Assembly (NCBI GenBank): GCA_964016885.1
Contig: OZ024743.1
Location: 220,906,001 to 220,970,000 of the forward strand
From: Eledone cirrhosa
Lineage: Eukaryota
DNA length: 64,000 bases
Direction of reading: 5' to 3'
This document shows, in pieces, positions 3,498 through 60,935 of this stretch. The notes beneath the pieces are model-generated. The model worked only from the letters and a program-made list of their open reading frames with translations, made no database searches and was not told the origin of the DNA. The translations under genes were made by a program, and so were the position numbers. Position 1 is the stretch's first letter. Each line of letters opens with the position of its first letter.

Positions 3498-3499
<2 letters not shown>

Positions 3500-3707
3500 C
3501 GAAGGAAATGCGGTAAGGACCCAAGTGGACCATAACGCACCAAAGTACTCAATACTTAGGGTAGTAGAGTGGGTAATAGGAACGAGTAGGACCCCGACGG
3601 CTGAGCTCAAGCCGTTTCGACGGCTAATTCTGGACTAAAATGATTTTAGTCCAGAATTAGCCGTCGAAACGGCTTGAGCTCAGCCGTCGGGGTCCTACTC
3701 GTTCCTA
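3498..3707 (-). mobile_element. Fold-back half-hammerhead element (family A), copy 1, in (TA)n
   Basis: Near-perfect palindrome 3576-3708 plus a ~78-bp unique tail; contains GAAACGGCT-TGAGCTC-AGCCGTC; (TA)n on both sides. Confidence 0.85.
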
Positions 3708-4302
3708 TATATATATATATATATATATGTGTGTATATATATGCATAAAGTGCTCTTTTACAGGGCGTCATAAAAAGGATGATAGATCTTTTACTATAAT
3801 CATTCTTCAGAACCTCACTAGCTTGAGTAGCAAAACCTCAATAATGAACTGCTTCATTCCATTCCTAAGAACTTTGTATCCTCATCTTTATAAATAGATT
3901 ATCATTCTCCTTTTATGCACCTTGGATTTGAACTTGAAATGTTACTCAGCAGGTCACAAGCTTATCACCTGTGTCGTCGCCGGTGAACAGCCCCACTCCT
4001 AAACAGGCGCTAATCAGTAGTAGCTTCAATCGCTGGTACTGATTTAGCTTAAGAAAGATGGACAAGAGAGTCATGAAATAAAGTGACTTACTCGAAAAAA
4101 AAAGCACTGTTCGCTCCAGAAATAGATCTTGGGTCTTTAGTGACACGAACACAATACTATAAACACCTGACCGCACTCCTTCACTCATATAGGTTAATAA
4201 GAGTATAAATAATTAGTAATAATAATAGGATTGGTTGTATACATACACACACACATATATACATATATTATATATATTTTATTATATATATATATACATA
4301 TA

Positions 4303-7944: not shown

Positions 7945-10267
7945 ATGGAAAGACACTATATAGGAATGTCCTTAAAAAACATACCTATACCTACAAATAA
8001 GGAATATATGCTCGGTATGATACAAATAACTAATGACTTTATCCGTAGAATCAGATGGAAAGCATATCATTACGTCAAAGGACATAATAATAGTGATAGA
8101 AATAATGGGTCAACCAGTGAAAAATATTGGTTTAGATCCTGCAAAAATCCACCAAGCAACCCACAACTTATGCCTTTGAACTTGACCTCATGAACATGAT
8201 AAAAAAACTAAATTAAAAAAACGAACACACCATAACAAACTGCAAAATAACATCAATGCACTACTAAAAAAATTGCGTAACACCAACGGTATTTTAGTAA
8301 TGGCAGACAAAACATCAAATGTATAAACCATGAGCCTTAATACATACAACTTTATACGCCGGGAATTATATAAAAAATACAAGAAAGCTACAGTCTACAC
8401 TCAATAGCATAAACAAGCAAGGTTTTAACAAAACTTAAAATATCTGATAGAACCGAACCTCTAACCCCCTGTAAACCCACTTTTAATCTGAAGGATCATA
8501 AATGTAACTTCGAAACTAACCCTACTATTAGATTAATATGTCCATCAAAATCAGATATAGGCAGAATTAGCAAGTTTATACTAGATAGTATAATACCACA
8601 AATTAAAGAACAACTAAAAATTAAGCTCTGGGGTAAGACAAATGAAGCAATAGATTGGTTTAATAAATTAGACAATAGAGAATATTCCGACTTTATACAA
8701 TTTGACATAAATGAGTACTACTGTTCTATTTCCCCCAGTAACCCGAAATAAGGCACTATCCTTTGCACAAAAAAACTCTGACCTTTCAGCAGATGAAATT
8801 AAAATAATACTAGCTGCTAGAGGAACAATCATTAAATTCGACAATAGTTACTGGGGGCGAAAAAATAGACAGAATAACTTCGATATAACTATGGGATCAA
8901 ATGATTCAGCCCAAGTTACAGACATTGTCGGAATTTATATAGCACATTTCTTACATAGGGAATTTGATAACCTACAAGGAGGAATCTATAGAGACGATAC
9001 ACTCCTTTTAGCTAAAAACCTAAATAATCAAAACTTAGAAAGATTAAGGAAAAAGATTAGAAAATTCTTTAATAATTTAGGCCTTAACATCACTTTTGAA
9101 CCCAACTCTAAAAATGCTAACTTCTTAGATGTATCGCTCAACCTTAACTCAGGACTAATAGAACCCTTCCATACAAATAATGAAAATTTAGCTTACATTG
9201 ATTATAACTCTAATCACCCTCGATCCATAATTAACTCCATAGCACATAGTATATCCCTTAGAATCTCGCGCCTATCTTCTAACCTAGAGATTTTTAACGA
9301 ACACGCTAACTACTACAACATAGCTTTACTTAAGGCAGGCCATAAAGAGAGACTCAAATACATACCAGATACAAAAAATAACAACACACTTAATATTAAT
9401 AGTACTATCCACACCTATAAAACAACAAATCTAGGACTAAACATAGACATTGGCAACAAGCGCGTAAATTAAATGAACAGAATACTAATATAAAGACCAC
9501 TAATAACTATAGAAGATGCAGAAATAGAAATTACTTATGGTTCAATCCAATGTTTAACTCCTCTATAAAAACAAAACTACCTTACACTTTCTTCAAATTA
9601 GTTGACAAACGCTTCCCTAAAATTCATAAATATCATAAAATCTTTAATAGAAAAACTATCAAACTATCATACTCCACTGCCAACAACATAGAATCACACA
9701 TACATAAAATTAACTATAAAATAATTTATAATACGAGTGGCCCGCAAATAAGTACCATCATTATCACAACCAAACACACGTCAGAACACATCACCACAAT
9801 ACATCAACAAACCCAATTCTCAGCCCATACATAGCAACCTACAAAACCATATCGAAGAACCGGCGCATAGAAAAGCATCTAAATATAACTGCCATCTACC
9901 TGACAAATGCCCTTTACAAAATAGATGCCTAGAGACAAATATAGTATACCTATGTACTATAGATTCAGGTAGCTCAGCATGGCATTACATTGGTTCCACA
10001 GCTGGGGGGTTTAAGAAAAGGTGGTACGTACGTAGACACTCTATGATTAACAGGAATCTCTTAAGTACAACGACTCTCGCCAATAAAATCTGGCAACTCA
10101 AGGATGCAAATGCCTATCAAATTGGTATGTCCCACTGCGGTCTCTGTAATATGGAACTTTTCCAAATTTTAAATTACAACAAAATGTTTCTTAACAGTAA
10201 AATTGAAAGAACTATTTCCTGCCGACATAAATCGGCGATCAAATTTGAGAACTTTAGACCAGTTTGA
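7945..10267 (+). pseudogene. Penelope-like retroelement ORF (reverse transcriptase + C-terminal GIY-YIG endonuclease), disrupted by frameshifts and stops
   Basis: Motifs across frames: SLKNIPIP, FIRRIRWKA, ADKTSN, RLICPSKSDIGRISK, FIQFDI, MGSNDSAQV, catalytic YRDD, NFLDVSLNL, SNHP, WFNP, KIFNRKTIKLSYS. From 9881: YNC-x5-CPLQNRCLETNIVY...YIGST...FKKRW...IWQLK...CGLC...LN...CRH. Confidence 0.93.
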
Positions 10268-11521: not shown

Positions 11522-11557
<36 letters not shown>

Positions 11558-11558
<1 letters not shown>

Positions 11559-11737
11559 GTAGGTCCCGGGTTGAGTCGGGGATAACCACAGTAAGTAAGG
11601 TACTCAATACATGGCAGAGTAAATTTTTTTATTTTATAGAAGGAGCTTCTACAGGACTAGTACTGTTTCATTCAGATGAAATCTTCAGGAAGCTGGGTGT
11701 CATCTGAATGAGACAGTACTAGTACTGTAGAAGCTCC

Positions 11738-11744
<7 letters not shown>
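11558..11744 (-). mobile_element. Short hammerhead element in (TA)n with an inverted partial copy
   Basis: 11635-11679 is repeated in inverted form at 11700-11744; (TA)n on both sides. Confidence 0.75.
11644..11694 (-). ncRNA. Type I hammerhead ribozyme, apparently intact
   Basis: Minus strand reads agcttc CTGAAGA t-ttc-atct-gaa-t GAA ACAG tactagtc CTGT A gaagct: 6-bp stem I, 4-bp stem III, GUA cleavage triplet. Confidence 0.85.
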
Positions 11745-13170: not shown

Positions 13171-13265
<95 letters not shown>

Positions 13266-13669
13266 CAGATTAAAGTTTAAGCGAAGAATCGCTGCTTTCA
13301 CCCTTAACGGGATCTTCTGAAACTAAAAAAATCAATCTGTGAACGCAGAAGTAAATATTTCGAAAAACACGTAATAAATATATATATATACACACACTAT
13401 ATATATACATGTATACACACACAGATAGCGTCATAATGTCGTAATGCAGACAGCCAGACATACAAACAGATATTATAAGGCCGCAACCTCGTAGCTATGT
13501 ATCTATCTAAAAAGAAAGACTAAGAATTATAGCGAGATCGCTATAAATTGTTTTTGCTCAAAACACTGACACGACCATAAGTTTTACGTGTAAAGTTTGA
13601 GAACAATCGGTTGGGTGGTTCTCGAGTTTTAGGGAGTCAGACAGACATTCTCTGTTTTAGATATATAGA
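13019..13669 (-). mobile_element. Non-autonomous Helitron, copy 1, carrying PLE pseudo-LTR fragments
   Basis: On the minus strand: 5' TCTATATATCTAAAAC, 3' hairpin cccgagcaacgccggg about 8 nt before terminal CTAG, inserted between A and T, no TSD; second copy at 47340-48011. Confidence 0.85.
13274..13324 (-). ncRNA. Hammerhead-like motif with CAGAAGA core inside the Helitron
   Basis: agttt CAGAAGA t-ccc-gttaa-ggg-t GAA AGC...GCT T aaact. Confidence 0.55.
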
Positions 13670-19000: not shown

Positions 19001-19014
19001 ATAACGTCACGTAT

Positions 19015-19193
19015 ATAGGAAAATATTTAACCCCGACGGCAGAGCTCAAGCCGTTTCGACCGCTATTTCTGGACTCAGTTCCGAAATAGCCGTCAAAACG
19101 GCTTGAGCTCTGCCGTCGAGGTTAAACATTTTCCTATTACCCACTCTACTACCCTAACTATTGAGTCCATCTGGTTCCTTACCACACTTCCTT

Positions 19194-19196
<3 letters not shown>
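19015..19196 (+). mobile_element. Family A fold-back element, copy 2 (internal deletion)
   Basis: Same hairpin and tail as 3498-3707, opposite orientation; ends in (TA)n. Confidence 0.8.
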
Positions 19197-21730: not shown

Positions 21731-22040
21731 GAGAGAGAGAGATCTTTAATCTTTCATTTCTAAGAAATCATTTCTATATCAAAGTAAGGAAGCCTACACT
21801 TTACTGACGTACTAAGTACATATTTTAGCTATATACATCGGGAATCCACATATTATATATATATATATATATATATATTGAGTTGTAATAAAATGAAAAC
21901 GAAATTTCATTTCTCACTCTTAGCACGGCACTTACTTACGGCATACATTCAGGCTGTTCAGTTTGTTTTCAAACGAACAAAGCGGGTGCTATAATAAGCG
22001 TACTGATGCCTACATATACGTATGTGTACCTGTATGTGTA

Positions 22041-22124
<84 letters not shown>

Positions 22125-22360
22125 TGCTACTGTACGTCTGTATACATATATGTATGTACGTATACATACATACTTACATTTAAGTAAGTGCCGTACTAAG
22201 AGTGAGAAATGAAATTTCGTTTTCATTCTATTACAACTCATCGTTTTCGGTGCGCCTGACCGATTTAACTCACTCAATATGCAAATTAGGCTGCTCAGCC
22301 GTTAATTTTCATAACAAAAGTATATACTTTCGAACGTTCAACTATCTGGCAGATGGGTAT

Positions 22361-24163: not shown

Positions 24164-24497
<334 letters not shown>

Positions 24498-31518: not shown

Positions 31519-31870
31519 ATGTGTGTGTGTGAATAGCACATGCATTTTATGTTTGTGCCTAACGATTTTTTTCTATTAGTCCTGCTTATTTCTTTTATTT
31601 CTTTTTGTATTTTATATTATAAAATAAACTTATCTAAGGTGCTATACAATGCGACTGAACACGAAACCATGTGACACATCACAACATCAATACCGTGTAA
31701 CAATTATAATAGTTTCTGTTTTAGACACAAGGCCAACAATTATTGTGAAAGGAAAAGTCGATTGAATCAATCCCACTGCGATACTGGTACTTTATTTCAT
31801 TGATACCGTAAGGATGAACGGTGGGACTTGCAATAAATAAATAAATAAATAAATATATATATATACATAT

Positions 31871-32054
31871 ATAGGTAAATGTTTAACCCCGACGGCAGAG
31901 CTGAAGCCGTTTCGACGTCCAGAAATAGCCGTCGAAGCGACTTGAGCTCTGCCGTCGGGGTTAAACATTGTCCTATTACCCACTCTACTACCCTAAGTTT
32001 TGAGTACTCTGGTGCATTATGGTCCATCTGGTTCCTTTCCACACCTCCTTCGTT
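31871..32054 (+). mobile_element. Family A fold-back element, copy 3
   Basis: Hairpin with shortened centre plus tail; (TA)n flanks. Confidence 0.8.
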
Positions 32055-35393: not shown

Positions 35394-35591
35394 AACGAAG
35401 GAAATGTGGTAAGGAACCAGGTGGACCATAACGCACCAAAGTACTCAATACTTAGGGTAGTAGAGTGGGTAATAGGAACGAGTAGGACACCGACGGCTGA
35501 GCTCAAGCCGTTTCGACGACTAATTCTGGACTACTAGTCCATAATTAGCCGTCGAAACGGCTTGAGCTCAGCCGTCGGGGTCCTACTCGTT

Positions 35592-35595
<4 letters not shown>
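35394..35595 (-). mobile_element. Family A fold-back element, copy 4
   Basis: Nearly identical to copy 1 but with a different hairpin centre (ggactactagtcc). Confidence 0.85.
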
Positions 35596-35660
<65 letters not shown>

Positions 35661-35677
35661 TGTATATATATATATAT

Positions 35678-35838
35678 AACGAAAGTGTGGTAAGGAACCG
35701 GGTGGACCATAACGTACCAGAGTTCTCGATACTTAGAGTCAGGACCCCGACGGCTTAGATTCGGCAGTTTCGACAGCTAGAGTTCAGATCTAGCTGTAGA
35801 AACGACCGGAGCTCTGGAGTCGGGGTCCTCACTCGATT

Positions 35839-35842
<4 letters not shown>
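35678..35842 (-). mobile_element. Family A fold-back element, copy 5 (divergent, internal deletion)
   Basis: Same tail start aacgaa...gtggtaaggaacc and hairpin remnants; (TA)n flanks. Confidence 0.7.
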
Positions 35843-47485: not shown

Positions 47486-47579
<94 letters not shown>

Positions 47580-48011
47580 TAACAGATTAAAGTTTAAGCA
47601 AAGAATCGTTGCTTTCACCCTTAACGGGATCTTCTGAAACTATAAAATCAATCAGTGAACGCAGAAGTAAATATTTCGAAAAACGTTACACATTATAAAT
47701 ATATATACACACACTATATATACATATATACACTCACAGGTAACGTCATAATGTCGTAATGCAGACAGACAGATATTATAAGGGCGCAACGTTATAATCA
47801 TGTATCTATCTAAAAAGGAAGACTAAGTATTATAGATTGTTAAATCGCCTAATGCGGTCCCTAGGGCATTGAACATTTGAAATATTTTTTGCTCATAACA
47901 CTCACGGGACCATAAGTATTACATATGTAAAGTTTGAAAACCGGTTGGGTGGTTCTCGAGTTTTAGGGAGTCAGACAGACAGACAAACATTCTCTGTTTT
48001 AAATATATAGA
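47340..48011 (-). mobile_element. Non-autonomous Helitron, copy 2, with CAGAAGA hammerhead-like motif at 47591-47641
   Basis: Colinear with 13019-13669; same TC...hairpin-CTAG termini, inserted between A and T. Confidence 0.85.
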
Positions 48012-55423: not shown

Positions 55424-55427
<4 letters not shown>

Positions 55428-55626
55428 AGGTATGAACCCGACGGCAGAGCTCAAGCCGTTTCGACGGCTATTTCAGGACAGCTATTTCATATCCTGAAAT
55501 AGCCGTCGAAACGGCTTGTGCTCTGCCGTCGAGGTCATACCTTTTCCTATCACCCACTCTACTACCTTAAGTATTGAGTACTCCGGTGCGTTATGGTCCA
55601 CCTGGTTCCTTACCACAATTCCCTCG

Positions 55627-55628
<2 letters not shown>
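55424..55628 (+). mobile_element. Family A fold-back element, copy 6
   Basis: Hairpin with centre ttcaggacagctatttcatatcctgaa plus tail; (TA)n flanks. Confidence 0.82.
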
Positions 55629-57173: not shown

Positions 57174-59381
57174 ATAATAATAAATTTGAAGACTAAAATC
57201 CAAAGAGAGCTCGATAAGGATAAATATATATCAAATATATAAGAACCGTAGAGCAAATATTTATTAAAATAACATTAAAGTTTAAGCAAAGAATCGCTGC
57301 TTTCGCCCTTAACGGGATCTTCTGAAACTAACAAAGTCAATCTGTAAACGCAGAAGTGGATATTTCAAAAAACGTTGCAACCGGAGGAAGACAGGAAGAC
57401 GATACTTTGGTTCGTGGAAACGTTCCCTGGCAAAGAACGGCAAAAAACGAATATAATACGAGCAGTGTTCAGGCTTTCCCGTCTATCTACTAACGAGCAT
57501 ATTTTCAACGACCATTCCACTTATTACAATGAAGCTCTTGCTCGGAGTGGATTTGTCGATAAGGTAGCATATACAGAGTACGAAAATAGACCTAGAAGAA
57601 ATAGATCCCGTCGCATTTGTTGGTATAACCCACCATATAATATGGAGGTGGCCACACCATTAGCTAAGATCTTTCTTTCCCTTATTACGAAGCATTTTCC
57701 CCCTACACATAAATATAGTAAAATTTTTAATAGAAATACTATTAAAATGTCTTACTCTACGACTCCTAACCTTGTACATAACATCACAGCTTCAAATTTA
57801 GTTAAACTACCTAGCCGTAGGAACACGTGCAACGCTGTAGTTAGTACTAACTGTATTGTAGGAATCGGGTTGATTGGCCCCTATCCGGGAAATGCCTCTC
57901 TAGTAACATTGTCTACAAATGTAAGGTTGAAACACCCACGTCCCGTAGGGCCTACATAGAGTTAACCGCCAATAGATTCAAGCAGCGTCTTTACATGCAT
58001 ACCCATTCTTTTCGTTAACCTCTAAGAAAAAATATGACGTCACTTTCAGCTTATATCTGGAGTCTAAAAGACAACAACACCAAATATAAGTTACACTGGG
58101 AGACCCTAGCTAGCGCTAGATCGTATAACGGAAATAAAAGACCATGTGACCTCTGCGCCGCTGAGGCCCTGGAAATACTCTACGCCACAGACCACATCTT
58201 AAACAAAAACCTGAGGCAATTTCGGCTTGGAAACATAAATTGCATAAAACTTTCCTGTATTACAGCCCCACGTTTTACCCTAACGGATAGTACGATCTTT
58301 ACGTGGATATTTTACGTCTTGATGTGGTAGCTAAGTATATGTTTTGTTTATACCATTACTTATTTGCATAGGTAAGTATATATTACCTGTATGTTTTGTG
58401 AAGGTACGTATACCTTCTCGTACGTATATTTGATTGTATATGTTATGGCGTATAATTTTATATTCTCTGGTACATATGGTTTGGTTATGTGTATACGGGT
58501 GTTTTGCGTCTGTGTGAGTATGTAGGTTCGTACGTATGTAGGGTGTGTGTATATATCTACTTCATGTTTTGGTTGACTTACGTCTCCGAAAATTTGTGTA
58601 TTTACATGTAGGCATGTGTGTGCGCTTGTTATATACGTATTTATTTATTTATATACGTTTATTTAATTATTTATTTATTCGTATACACGCATACACACAC
58701 ACACATATTTATATGTGCGTGGTTTTGTATACCTATGGTAAGTGTTTTCGCGTATGCTTGTGTTTGTACGTATTTGTATGCGTGTATGTATTTATTTAAT
58801 TTCTATTACCTCTGTATTGTATTTATTTACTTTGTTCTTAACTCTGAAGCGGAGATTCTTTCGGTCTCCTAGTTAGAATTTTAGTCTACGACTTCTTCTA
58901 TACCTTTTACGTGGTTTTGTCTTTGCGTGCAATTGTTCTCCACGCTCCCCATAGGACGTATTATCTTCGTTTTTTGGGTTCATTGCCAGAGAACGTCTCT
59001 ATGAACCACCTAAGAGAACATTAGTCTACCACCTCTTTTATACCATAAACGTGGTTCTGTCTTTGCGCGTAATTGTTTTTCACCGCTCGTATTATATTCG
59101 TTTTTTCCCGTTCTTTGCCAGGGAACGATTCCACGAATCAAAGTATCGTCTTCCTGTCTTCCTCCGATTGCAACGTTTTTTGAAATATCCACTTCTGCGT
59201 TTACAGATTGACTTTGTTAGTTTCGGAAGATCCCGTTAAGGGTGAAATCAGCGATTCTTTGCTTAAACTTTAATCTGTTATTTTAATAATTATTTGCTCT
59301 ATGGTTCTTATATATTTGATATATATTTATCCTTATCGAGCCCTCTTTGGATTTTAGTCTTCAAATTTATTATTATTACTA
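57174..59381 (+). mobile_element. 5'-truncated Penelope-like element with an inverted pseudo-LTR copy at its 5' end, in (TA)n
   Basis: Inverted repeats 57174-57467 and 59081-59376; PLE coding remnant between; HHR-like motifs at 57279-57329 (-) and 59219-59269 (+). Confidence 0.9.
57468..58245 (+). pseudogene. PLE RT-thumb, Cys linker and GIY-YIG endonuclease remnant
   Basis: RLSRLS...YYNEAL...WYNPPY...KHFP...KIFNRNTIKMSYS; after a frameshift C-CRNRVDWPLSGKCLSSNIVYKC...YIELTANRFKQR...H..SF; LSAYIWSLK...W...CDLC...LN. Confidence 0.92.
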
Positions 59382-60104: not shown

Positions 60105-60507
60105 ATAAATTAATAAAATAATTAATAAACAAAGAAACAGTTCCTTATATTAAAAAAATTCATCATTTTACGATCGTTTCTAGGATATATATGTGTTAGA
60201 GTTGGTTTGCATATTCTATAGATCTATGTACAATATTTATACAAACTATCAGAGGGAATATACATACCTACACATATATATGCTGTCTTCAGAAATAATC
60301 CTTATTTAATCATTATATCTGAAGACAGCATATATATGTGTAGGTATGTATATTCCCTCTGATAGTTTGTATAAATATTGTACATAGATCTATAGAATAT
60401 GCATACCAACTCTAACACATATATATCCTAGAAACGATCGTAAAATGATGAATTTTTTTTAATATGAGGAACTGTTTCTTTGTTTATTCATTATTTTATT
60501 AATTTAT
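60105..60507. repeat. ~400-bp palindrome made of two divergent hammerhead-bearing arms
   Basis: Arms 60105-60293 and 60318-60507 are near-perfect reverse complements, with a ~24-bp spacer. Confidence 0.93.
60162..60299 (-). ncRNA. Type I hammerhead with ~105-nt stem II domain (mirror copy 60312-60449 on +)
   Basis: attattt CTGAAGA cagc-atatatatgtgt...acacatatatat-ccta GAAAC gatc GTA aaatgat; 7-bp stem I, palindromic stem III. Confidence 0.65.
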
Positions 60508-60683: not shown

Positions 60684-60685
<2 letters not shown>

Positions 60686-60872
60686 CGAAGGAAATGTGGT
60701 AAGGAACCAGGTGGTCCATAACGCACCAAAGTACTCAATACTTAGGGTAGTAGAGTGGGTAATAGGAACCAGTAAGACCCCGACGGCTGAGCTCAAGCCG
60801 TTTCGACGGCTAATACTGGACAGTACTAGCCGTCGAAACGGCTTGAGCTCAGCCGCCGGGGTCTTACTGGTT

Positions 60873-60876
<4 letters not shown>
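60684..60876 (-). mobile_element. Family A fold-back element, copy 7
   Basis: Hairpin centre ctaatactggacagtactag; both arms share the copy-specific accagtaag variant. Confidence 0.85.

Positions 60877-60935
<59 letters not shown>

Follow-up and report, generated by a model that had tools for sequence, protein, structure and literature searches.

How does a genome come to carry many short hairpins that hold one half of a hammerhead ribozyme and lack the other? The question is raised by the window, the whole 64,000-nucleotide stretch of Eledone cirrhosa DNA analysed here, in which an earlier note, made from the letters alone, described seven hairpins beside TA tracts, each holding half a hammerhead and turning in stem II. 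All of this was found as described. The seven copies were located at their places in the window, with a TA tract on either side of each; every copy consists of an arm with a tail and a shorter inverted arm and contains the GAAA / stem III / GUC half of a hammerhead, the 5′ core being absent. Positions within the element are numbered on the RNA-sense strand with the G of the ribozyme GAAA as 0 and negative numbers lying 5′; site 1 is the end at +121 and site 2 the end at +43 (cctat), both treated below as starts of reverse transcription (RT).

3498..3708, no strand given: copy 1, whole head-to-head insertion in (TA)n; the site-1 cDNA comes first on the plus strand
3498..3575, minus strand: copy 1, 78-nt tail of a Penelope-like element (PLE), bounded by RT start site 1 (3498) and site 2
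3576..3639, minus strand: copy 1, long (site-1) arm, with the stem I 3′ strand, GUC, stem III, GAAA and the stem II 3′ strand to −21
3636, minus strand: copy 1, initiator-like A(−18) of the long arm
3640..3644, strand not applicable: copy 1, junction insert of 5 nt; the surrounding 21-nt centre is found at 76 loci, in both orientations
3645..3708, plus strand: copy 1, short (site-2) arm, with A(−18) at 3648, GAAA at 3666-3669, the cleavage triplet GUC at 3686-3688 and the site-2 end at 3708
19013..19196, plus strand: copy 2, both arms to near −18 with one additional G between; internally deleted tail
31869..32054, plus strand: copy 3, site-1 arm to −17, site-2 arm to about −4
35394..35596, minus strand: copy 4, both arms to −19, single base between
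35678..35842, minus strand: copy 5, of the older subfamily 3; site-2 arm (−18) more 5′ than site-1 arm (−10); internally deleted tail
55424..55628, plus strand: copy 6 (listed as L201), arms to −16 and −17, separated by a 12-nt insert for which an arm was the template
60684..60877, minus strand: copy 7 (listed as L001), site-1 arm to −17, site-2 arm to about −8

The seven centres are all different, and all lie inside the 3′ strand of stem II. The tail, which the earlier note took to be fixed at about 80 nt, is indeed 78 nt long, but those of the copies at 19015 and 35678 have internal deletions. An Rfam scan of the window placed no hammerhead among the best 150 of 514 matches, these being mostly sub-threshold microRNA hits, and one window copy itself scored a sub-threshold microRNA match.

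Relation of the hairpins to a Penelope-like element

Among the 30 closest relatives of the copy at 60684, three (L008, L018, and L020) extend 5′ beyond the hairpin zone and through the whole ribozyme, and L008 and L018 lead into a frame for reverse transcriptase and endonuclease. Long relatives with upstream PLE sequence exist for every window subfamily examined. The frame is intact in L325, a partial tandem with a 3,118-bp unit, where it encodes 719 amino acids (L325:4580-6739), laid out as reverse transcriptase followed by a C-terminal GIY-YIG domain (YRDD and IY...YIG read by eye). The protein has DKT and WFNPP motifs, a CxCx5C linker and C-terminal CxxC and CxH motifs, lacks CCHH, and has RWR where the Hydra clade has an N-terminal RWK. 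Pfam and PDB searches with this open reading frame gave no match; it has 2,054 homologues, most of the best 120 matching at about 40% over about 97% of its length, and the top homologue carries PF01541. Three tandems (L325, L334, and L033) and more than 20 long inversions show the partially tandem pLTR and the inverted 5′-truncated copy. These features fit a Hydra-type PLE as the parent, the clade being assigned by comparing motifs with the published description; the unit of 3,118 bp exceeds the "generally under 3 kb" of the Hydra clade, itself only a tendency.

The small hairpins are the shortest head-to-head insertions of this Hydra-type PLE. The parent adds a new family to a known clade; its structural traits have been published before, so that it is no new kind of element, and its value lies in the very numerous miniature copies and in their junction statistics.

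Three other assignments were considered and rejected. Membership of Naiad was dropped because the endonuclease of the 719-aa protein is C-terminal. A MITE is not indicated, given the unequal arms, the varied centres and a partner that is a reverse transcriptase and not a DNA transposase. A non-LTR retrozyme was rejected because the copies stand head to head with only the 3′ half of the ribozyme, and not head to tail with whole hammerheads.

The hammerhead of the long copies

Long copies contain a complete type I hammerhead in their 3′ part, and a 19-nt motif of its 5′ half has 5,050 exact matches in the genome. The earlier note had foreseen longer members with a full upstream core, which exist, but it expected CUGANGA, and the core reads YUGAKAA. 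The canonical C3-G8 pair is absent; among the first 100 matches listed, read by eye, the pair is U3-A8 in 77 and C3-A8 in 23, the former being a variant reported in PLEs (PMC4209133). In an alignment of 16 related sequences, 88% of cells are paired in a three-way junction of stems I, II, and III, and there are three two-sided pair changes, all in stem II and mostly reflecting one subfamily split. Minimum-energy folding yields the junction in two of five copies, with energies no better than those of shuffled sequences and z-scores that are not significant. Self-cleavage of the long-copy hammerhead is a prediction.

Cleavage would remove both RT start sites, and nearly all copies must therefore derive from uncut RNA. 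The arms contain GUC and sequence on both sides of it, in agreement with the earlier note that reverse transcription crosses an uncut cleavage site. One copy, at L149:2408, has its two arms terminating at +23, the predicted cleavage site, and is possibly an insertion from self-cleaved RNA.

Family size and fixed ends in (TA)n targets

The genome contains 23,267 exact matches to a 29-nt stretch of the core and none to its reversed control, far more than chance would give. We counted 12 insertions in the 328 kb of 33 stretches picked regardless of copy content, which extrapolates to about 100,000 to 110,000 insertions in the 3.0-Gb assembly from a small sample, half of it beside the window. By a similarly rough extrapolation, the copies amount to about 20 Mb of cruciform-prone DNA in TA microsatellites.

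Arm statistics are from 168 pairs at loci that were selected for resemblance in core or tail or that came up by chance, with the GAAA core required on both arms; loci picked by their centre (L171-200 and L291-320) or for long arms were left out. A TA run is present at either end of most of them. The short arm joins it at +39 to +43 in 152 copies, at about the same cctat site that the earlier note had named, and the long arm joins it at +119 to +122 in 140. The retroelement origin with a fixed RT start proposed in that note is borne out. Small pairs (n = 171) comprise one site-1 and one site-2 arm in 168, two site-1 arms in one, and other arrangements in two, the tail being confined to one arm in the same 168. 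The RNA reads UAU at site 2, and AU continues after site 1, so that 2 to 3 nt overlap the target at both, as expected from the microhomology to (TA)n that had been noticed. Site 2 also terminates kilobase-long arms and is for this reason taken as an RT start and not as a chance stop of second-strand synthesis. Rare insertions (L006, L020, L176, and L295) have the tail on both arms, site 1 having been used twice.

Relative lengths of the two arms

Either arm can be the longer. Among the 168 small copies, 47 have a site-1 arm that extends 5′ beyond its partner by more than 2 nt and 43 a site-2 arm that does so, the remaining 78 being level; an earlier parse of 71 copies gave 19 and 18, respectively. 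Twenty-four long inversions were examined, of which 18 were resolved (one is untyped, and five have more than 120 nt unassigned), and the site-2 arm is the longer in 12 and the site-1 arm in six, with differences of up to about 3 kb. The arms of long inversions abut directly, and their lengths have no significant correlation. In L350, a 1-kb site-2 arm lies beside a site-1 arm ending at −21, and in L125 a poly(A) run is present solely on the cDNA of the short arm. Where the site-2 arm is the more 5′, later deletion would have to be assumed to rescue any single-strand model, including self-priming (PMC3846280): sequence missing from the first strand is not available to a fold-back for copying, and the tail lies out of reach of a strand primed at site 2. 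The 78 symmetric junctions do not discriminate between models.

The arms nonetheless tend to be long or short together. Unselected small pairs include 110 that are short-short, and in 17 distinct pairs with an arm past −25 the partner also passes −25 in 14 and ends at −1 to −21 in three (binomial p = 2e-7 for an assumed long-arm share of 0.22). Several of these 17 loci had been chosen because one arm is long, without regard to its partner, and apparent pairs with neither arm passing or with a TA tract between the arms were set aside. Arms of two different common subfamilies are combined in only 2 of 181 pairs. Because the arms are both long or both short and seldom of mixed subfamilies, both cDNAs were likely made on one tail of one RNA.

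A model for the insertions

The reading that we consider probable is that two RT runs start from both strands of a cut (TA)n target, likely both ending at the RNA 5′ end and likely being joined end to end. The enzyme would cut both strands of the target, one reverse transcription starting at site 1 and another at site 2 of the same RNA tail, each by 2 to 3 nt of AT/TAT pairing. With a tail near the RNA 5′ end, either in the 5′ UTR of the mRNA or in a short transcript of any copy that keeps the promoter, short cDNAs of about 60 and 140 nt would result, running off the template at a start site within an initiator-like YYANWYY motif. In the main family this start site would fall inside stem II, and the 5′ half of the ribozyme would never be on the template; use of the 3′ tail of a long RNA would give kilobase arms that span the complete uncut ribozyme. 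Both single-stranded 3′ ends would then be trimmed and joined, bluntly, at 1 to 4 nt of microhomology, or with short untemplated or templated inserts (the latter by brief snap-back), by host end-joining or by the RT itself. Transcripts of small copies could in turn be used as templates for further two-arm insertions. In vitro, a Poseidon PLE protein cuts and extends both strands, uses two internal starts that bound the tail, and is modelled as a dimer (PMC11167929).

Positions at which the arms stop

The furthest arm end lies at −18 in 63 of the 168 copies, at −17 to −22 in 132, and beyond −22 in two, which amounts to a hard limit near −23 for small arms; the arm parser itself halts at −26, and L102, read as −48, has subfamily sequence upstream that is outside the profile. 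Solo arms, which are not inverted and join TA directly, end at −14 to −22 in 11 of 16 cases. The context of A(−18) is TTAGTC/T or TCAGTC. The initiator consensus is YYANWYY, which this context fits, the match being post hoc, and no convincing DPE was found at +28 to +32. An extra G stands immediately 5′ of −18 at 16 of 42 insert-bearing ends there, against an extra G at 23 of 126 ends elsewhere (p = 0.011). Such a G is a mark attributed to the cap (PMC9341517), but C is the commoner base next to −18 (22 of 42), which leaves the cap signal weak.

Two unrelated PLE families, here families 2 and 3, have their turning zone outside stem II. Mini-palindromes of family 3 keep CUGAUGA, with stem II at −11 to −2; of 57 ends, ten fall on the A of CCAGATT or CCAGCTT, which is the commonest position and lies 5′ of the entire ribozyme core, and three are beyond it. 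In family 2, 15 of 20 ends lie on the A of TTAGTTT or 3′ of it, four of them exactly on the A with G next in three, although the numbers are small. Because these families turn outside stem II and solo arms of the main family stop in the same zone as its inverted ones, the turning zone tracks the initiator-like A and not stem II, and the earlier suggestion that stem II dictates the turn is not supported.

An alternative to the start-site reading keeps two cDNAs and attributes the stop at −18/−22 to stalling of RT at upper stem II or loop II, or at a bound protein. There is a second peak of ends at −21/−22, in register with the predicted loop II of the main subfamilies (starting at −22/−23), and A-runs at −21 look like slippage on a U-tract, as stalling would predict. 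Independent stalls would, however, give many mixtures of short and long arms, and only 3 of 17 pairs are mixed; subfamily 3 has the same mode at −18 (12 of 26), though its predicted loop II lies further 5′, at −24 to −33; and families 2 and 3 stop outside stem II altogether. Stalling as the general cause is unlikely, and structure at loop II may contribute to the −21/−22 peak.

Judged from these DNA ends, A(−18) is likely the transcription start of the element. Penelope has a promoter with an initiator and a transcription start inside the pLTR (PMC2377424). Contigs from four runs whose kind is not recorded show a rise in summed depth at about −18, which we do not count as evidence, since contig depth is not copy number and one run may be from the assembly's own sample; no RNA run was listed with a match to the pLTR-ORF junction. 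Tandems L033, L325, and L334 run across −18 of the upstream pLTR, for which read-through RNA or strand transfer is needed.

cDNA ends at −15 to −19 are joined to the ATG region (about +207 to +220) at L007:286 and L007:1620-1856, and likewise at a contig joint in run X1 (L095, 1780 to 1554). These joins suggest template jumps from the RNA 5′ end.

Junctions and centres

Junction parsing is uncertain by 2 to 3 nt and hinges on the subfamily references. The 168 junctions include 35 that are blunt, 36 that overlap (mostly by 1 to 2 nt), and 97 with added bases; a 6-mer from the arms occurs in 23 of 40 inserts of at least 7 nt, in mirror-image forms from either arm, a count that has no chance control. 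Polymerase-theta end joining joins two 3′ overhangs, and the junctions resemble its products or those of RT template switching.

A second alternative is that longer perfect palindromes were inserted and their centres later deleted by cruciform processing. Palindrome centres are unstable, and some arms (L126, L152, and L057) have lost stem III between its 7-nt direct repeats. Yet centres are no shorter in copies whose arms have diverged more (rho −0.05, p 0.55, n = 163; medians 30, 33, and 33), later deletion would not stop at a single base in each of three families, solo arms share this end point, and bases have been added at 97 junctions. We give this explanation only a slim chance.

The third alternative is that of the earlier note, in which a single site-1 cDNA snaps back on stem II and copies itself as far as the first TA microhomology; it is akin to the self-priming on an antisense template that has been proposed for PLE inversions (PMC3846280). 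It would account for small junctions that all lie in the stem II 3′ strand, for the arm-derived 6-mers in inserts, for the loop being on the long arm in 47 of 168, and for the same extra A/T on both arms of the centre found at 76 loci. We nonetheless consider it very unlikely. Sequence absent from the tail arm is present on the tail-less arm in 43 of the 168 small copies, in 12 of the 18 long inversions and in the window copy at 35678, which contradicts snap-back unless nearly half of all copies later lost part of the long arm; the loop orientation is symmetric at the 76-locus centre; and solo arms and other families halt at motif A without stem II. Snap-back thus seems to survive in a brief form, as short templated inserts at junctions, and not as the source of the short arm.

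The arms had also been said to share copy-specific substitutions. In 140 pairs there are 12 shared variants, of which only five are private to one locus; the sharing is mostly of subfamily markers, and 215 differences are unshared.

The claim that every copy has its own centre is correct for the window and for 119 of 130 centres in the loci sampled, but not genome-wide, as the centre of the copy at 3498 recurs exactly at 76 loci. At first sight this is the shared identical centre that the earlier note named as evidence for a master copy. In 30 of these loci that were fetched, the tail is on the left in 13, on the right in 14, on both sides in two, and on neither in one; three of the 30 fall in another subfamily. 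Both arms bear the same extra A/T, and a search for a full-length source carrying this centre gave only four mutated palindromes. The 76-locus centre is a recurrent junction and not a clone, which agrees with the earlier view that junctions are made at insertion; the recurrence is unaccounted for by the two-cDNA model. That a master palindromic MITE or SINE was copied whole is scarcely credible, for although this one centre is common to 76 loci and the 30 best relatives of the copy at 3498 have the same or a near-identical centre, the tail may lie on either side of it, it is found in two subfamilies, most sampled centres are distinct, and long relatives that extend into upstream PLE sequence exist for each window subfamily that was examined.

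A −18 end joined to a −12 end is also frequent (L004, L024, L382, and L396), in both orientations and in subfamilies of different sequence, a join for which the two-cDNA model does not account. At L357:1416-1842, both arms end at −18 with a symmetric 4-nt extension, around about 390 bp of foreign sequence that includes a SINE-like piece.

Comparison with known systems

L1 twin priming, ascribed to Ostertag and Kazazian in 2001, reportedly has both target strands prime cDNA and leaves an inverted junction with microhomology. There the cDNAs are said to copy adjacent, non-overlapping parts of the RNA, whereas here the same part is copied twice and a palindrome results.

Among PLEs, partial tandems, an inverted 5′-truncated copy, a tail and (TA)n targeting are established traits, with an origin that is called undefined (PMC8557442). 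The Hydra clade, including Hydra-1_Obim, shares with our element the C-terminal GIY-YIG domain, DKT, CxCx5C, CxxC, CxH and WFNPP motifs, the absence of CCHH, (TA)n targets, a hammerhead in the 3′ part and partial tandems, and inverted 5′-truncated copies are seen both here and in Penelope-13_HM (PMC8557442). There are also differences from that description: File S2 gives canonical short hammerhead motifs for the Hydra clade, whereas here the core pair is U3-A8 or C3-A8, stem II is about 55 nt and stem III 6 bp; the unit is 3.1 kb with a 78-nt tail, against a published PLE tail of 30-40 bp; and palindromes of about 200 bp dominate here, unlike in the clade as described (PMC8557442).

In Anolis Poseidon, too, a pair of internal RT starts delimits the tail, the targets are AT-rich and the template is uncut RNA, and both target strands are extended in vitro, inversions not being addressed in the available text (PMC11167929). 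No homology was found at the Poseidon start (PMC11167929), whereas here there is a 2- to 3-nt AT/TAT overlap and one arm per site in 168 of 171 pairs. The inverted pLTRs of Drosophila virilis Penelope and Adineta vaga likewise have a head-to-head arm, a one-sided tail and a pLTR promoter with an initiator (PMC2377424, PMC3846280); they were read as products of self-priming (PMC3846280), whereas the two-sided asymmetry seen here argues for two cDNAs. Non-LTR retrozymes are similarly short non-coding PLE derivatives with type I hammerhead sequence, but they are arrayed head to tail with whole ribozymes, while ours are dispersed, head to head and with half a ribozyme (bioRxiv 10.64898/2026.07.22.740005). 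The miniature form is not described in the available text of that 2026 preprint or of the giant squid paper, and we found no report of it or of PLE twin priming in a literature search whose scope excluded most subscription papers, Repbase and bioRxiv supplements.

Tens of thousands of near-identical events provide a genome-scale test of how PLE inversions form. The junctions favour two cDNAs on one RNA and so relate what is seen in the genome to the two-site, two-strand result obtained in vitro (PMC11167929). Promoters of PLEs could be mapped from assemblies alone if the ends mark start sites. The half-ribozyme motifs are also explained, and such hairpins may elsewhere be mislabelled as MITEs or microRNA precursors. 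More tentatively, and with rather less than even confidence, we suggest that double-ended priming is obligate in PLEs, a dimeric enzyme opening both target strands and copying one RNA twice from the ends of its tail. The inverted arm, the one-sided tail and the pseudo-LTR (by strand transfer at the capped end) would follow from this, and the mini-palindromes would be a fossil 5′ RACE library that maps promoters and may propagate as a palindromic SINE-like class.

Other elements in the window

Further PLE sequences lie in the window. A family 3 mini-palindrome occupies 11522-11740, with a tail and a canonical hammerhead on its long arm; 66 arms of this family were found in the 2 Mb of genome DNA examined. 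Family 2, with a hammerhead-like motif that has a CAGAAGA core, is present at 13265-13370, 47575-47690, 57174-57960, and 59081-59376, and its copy at 57174 leads into a piece of a Hydra-type open reading frame with 49% identity over 134 aa to the parent protein. A frameshifted remnant of a further Hydra-type PLE reading frame lies at 8711-10267. Other TA-associated inverted repeats, with arms of 50-200 bp, are found at 60108-60504, 21879-22240, and 24167-24462 and are possibly inverted insertions of further PLE families. An abundant dispersed SINE-like repeat family is represented at 2068-2318 and in at least 10 more places.
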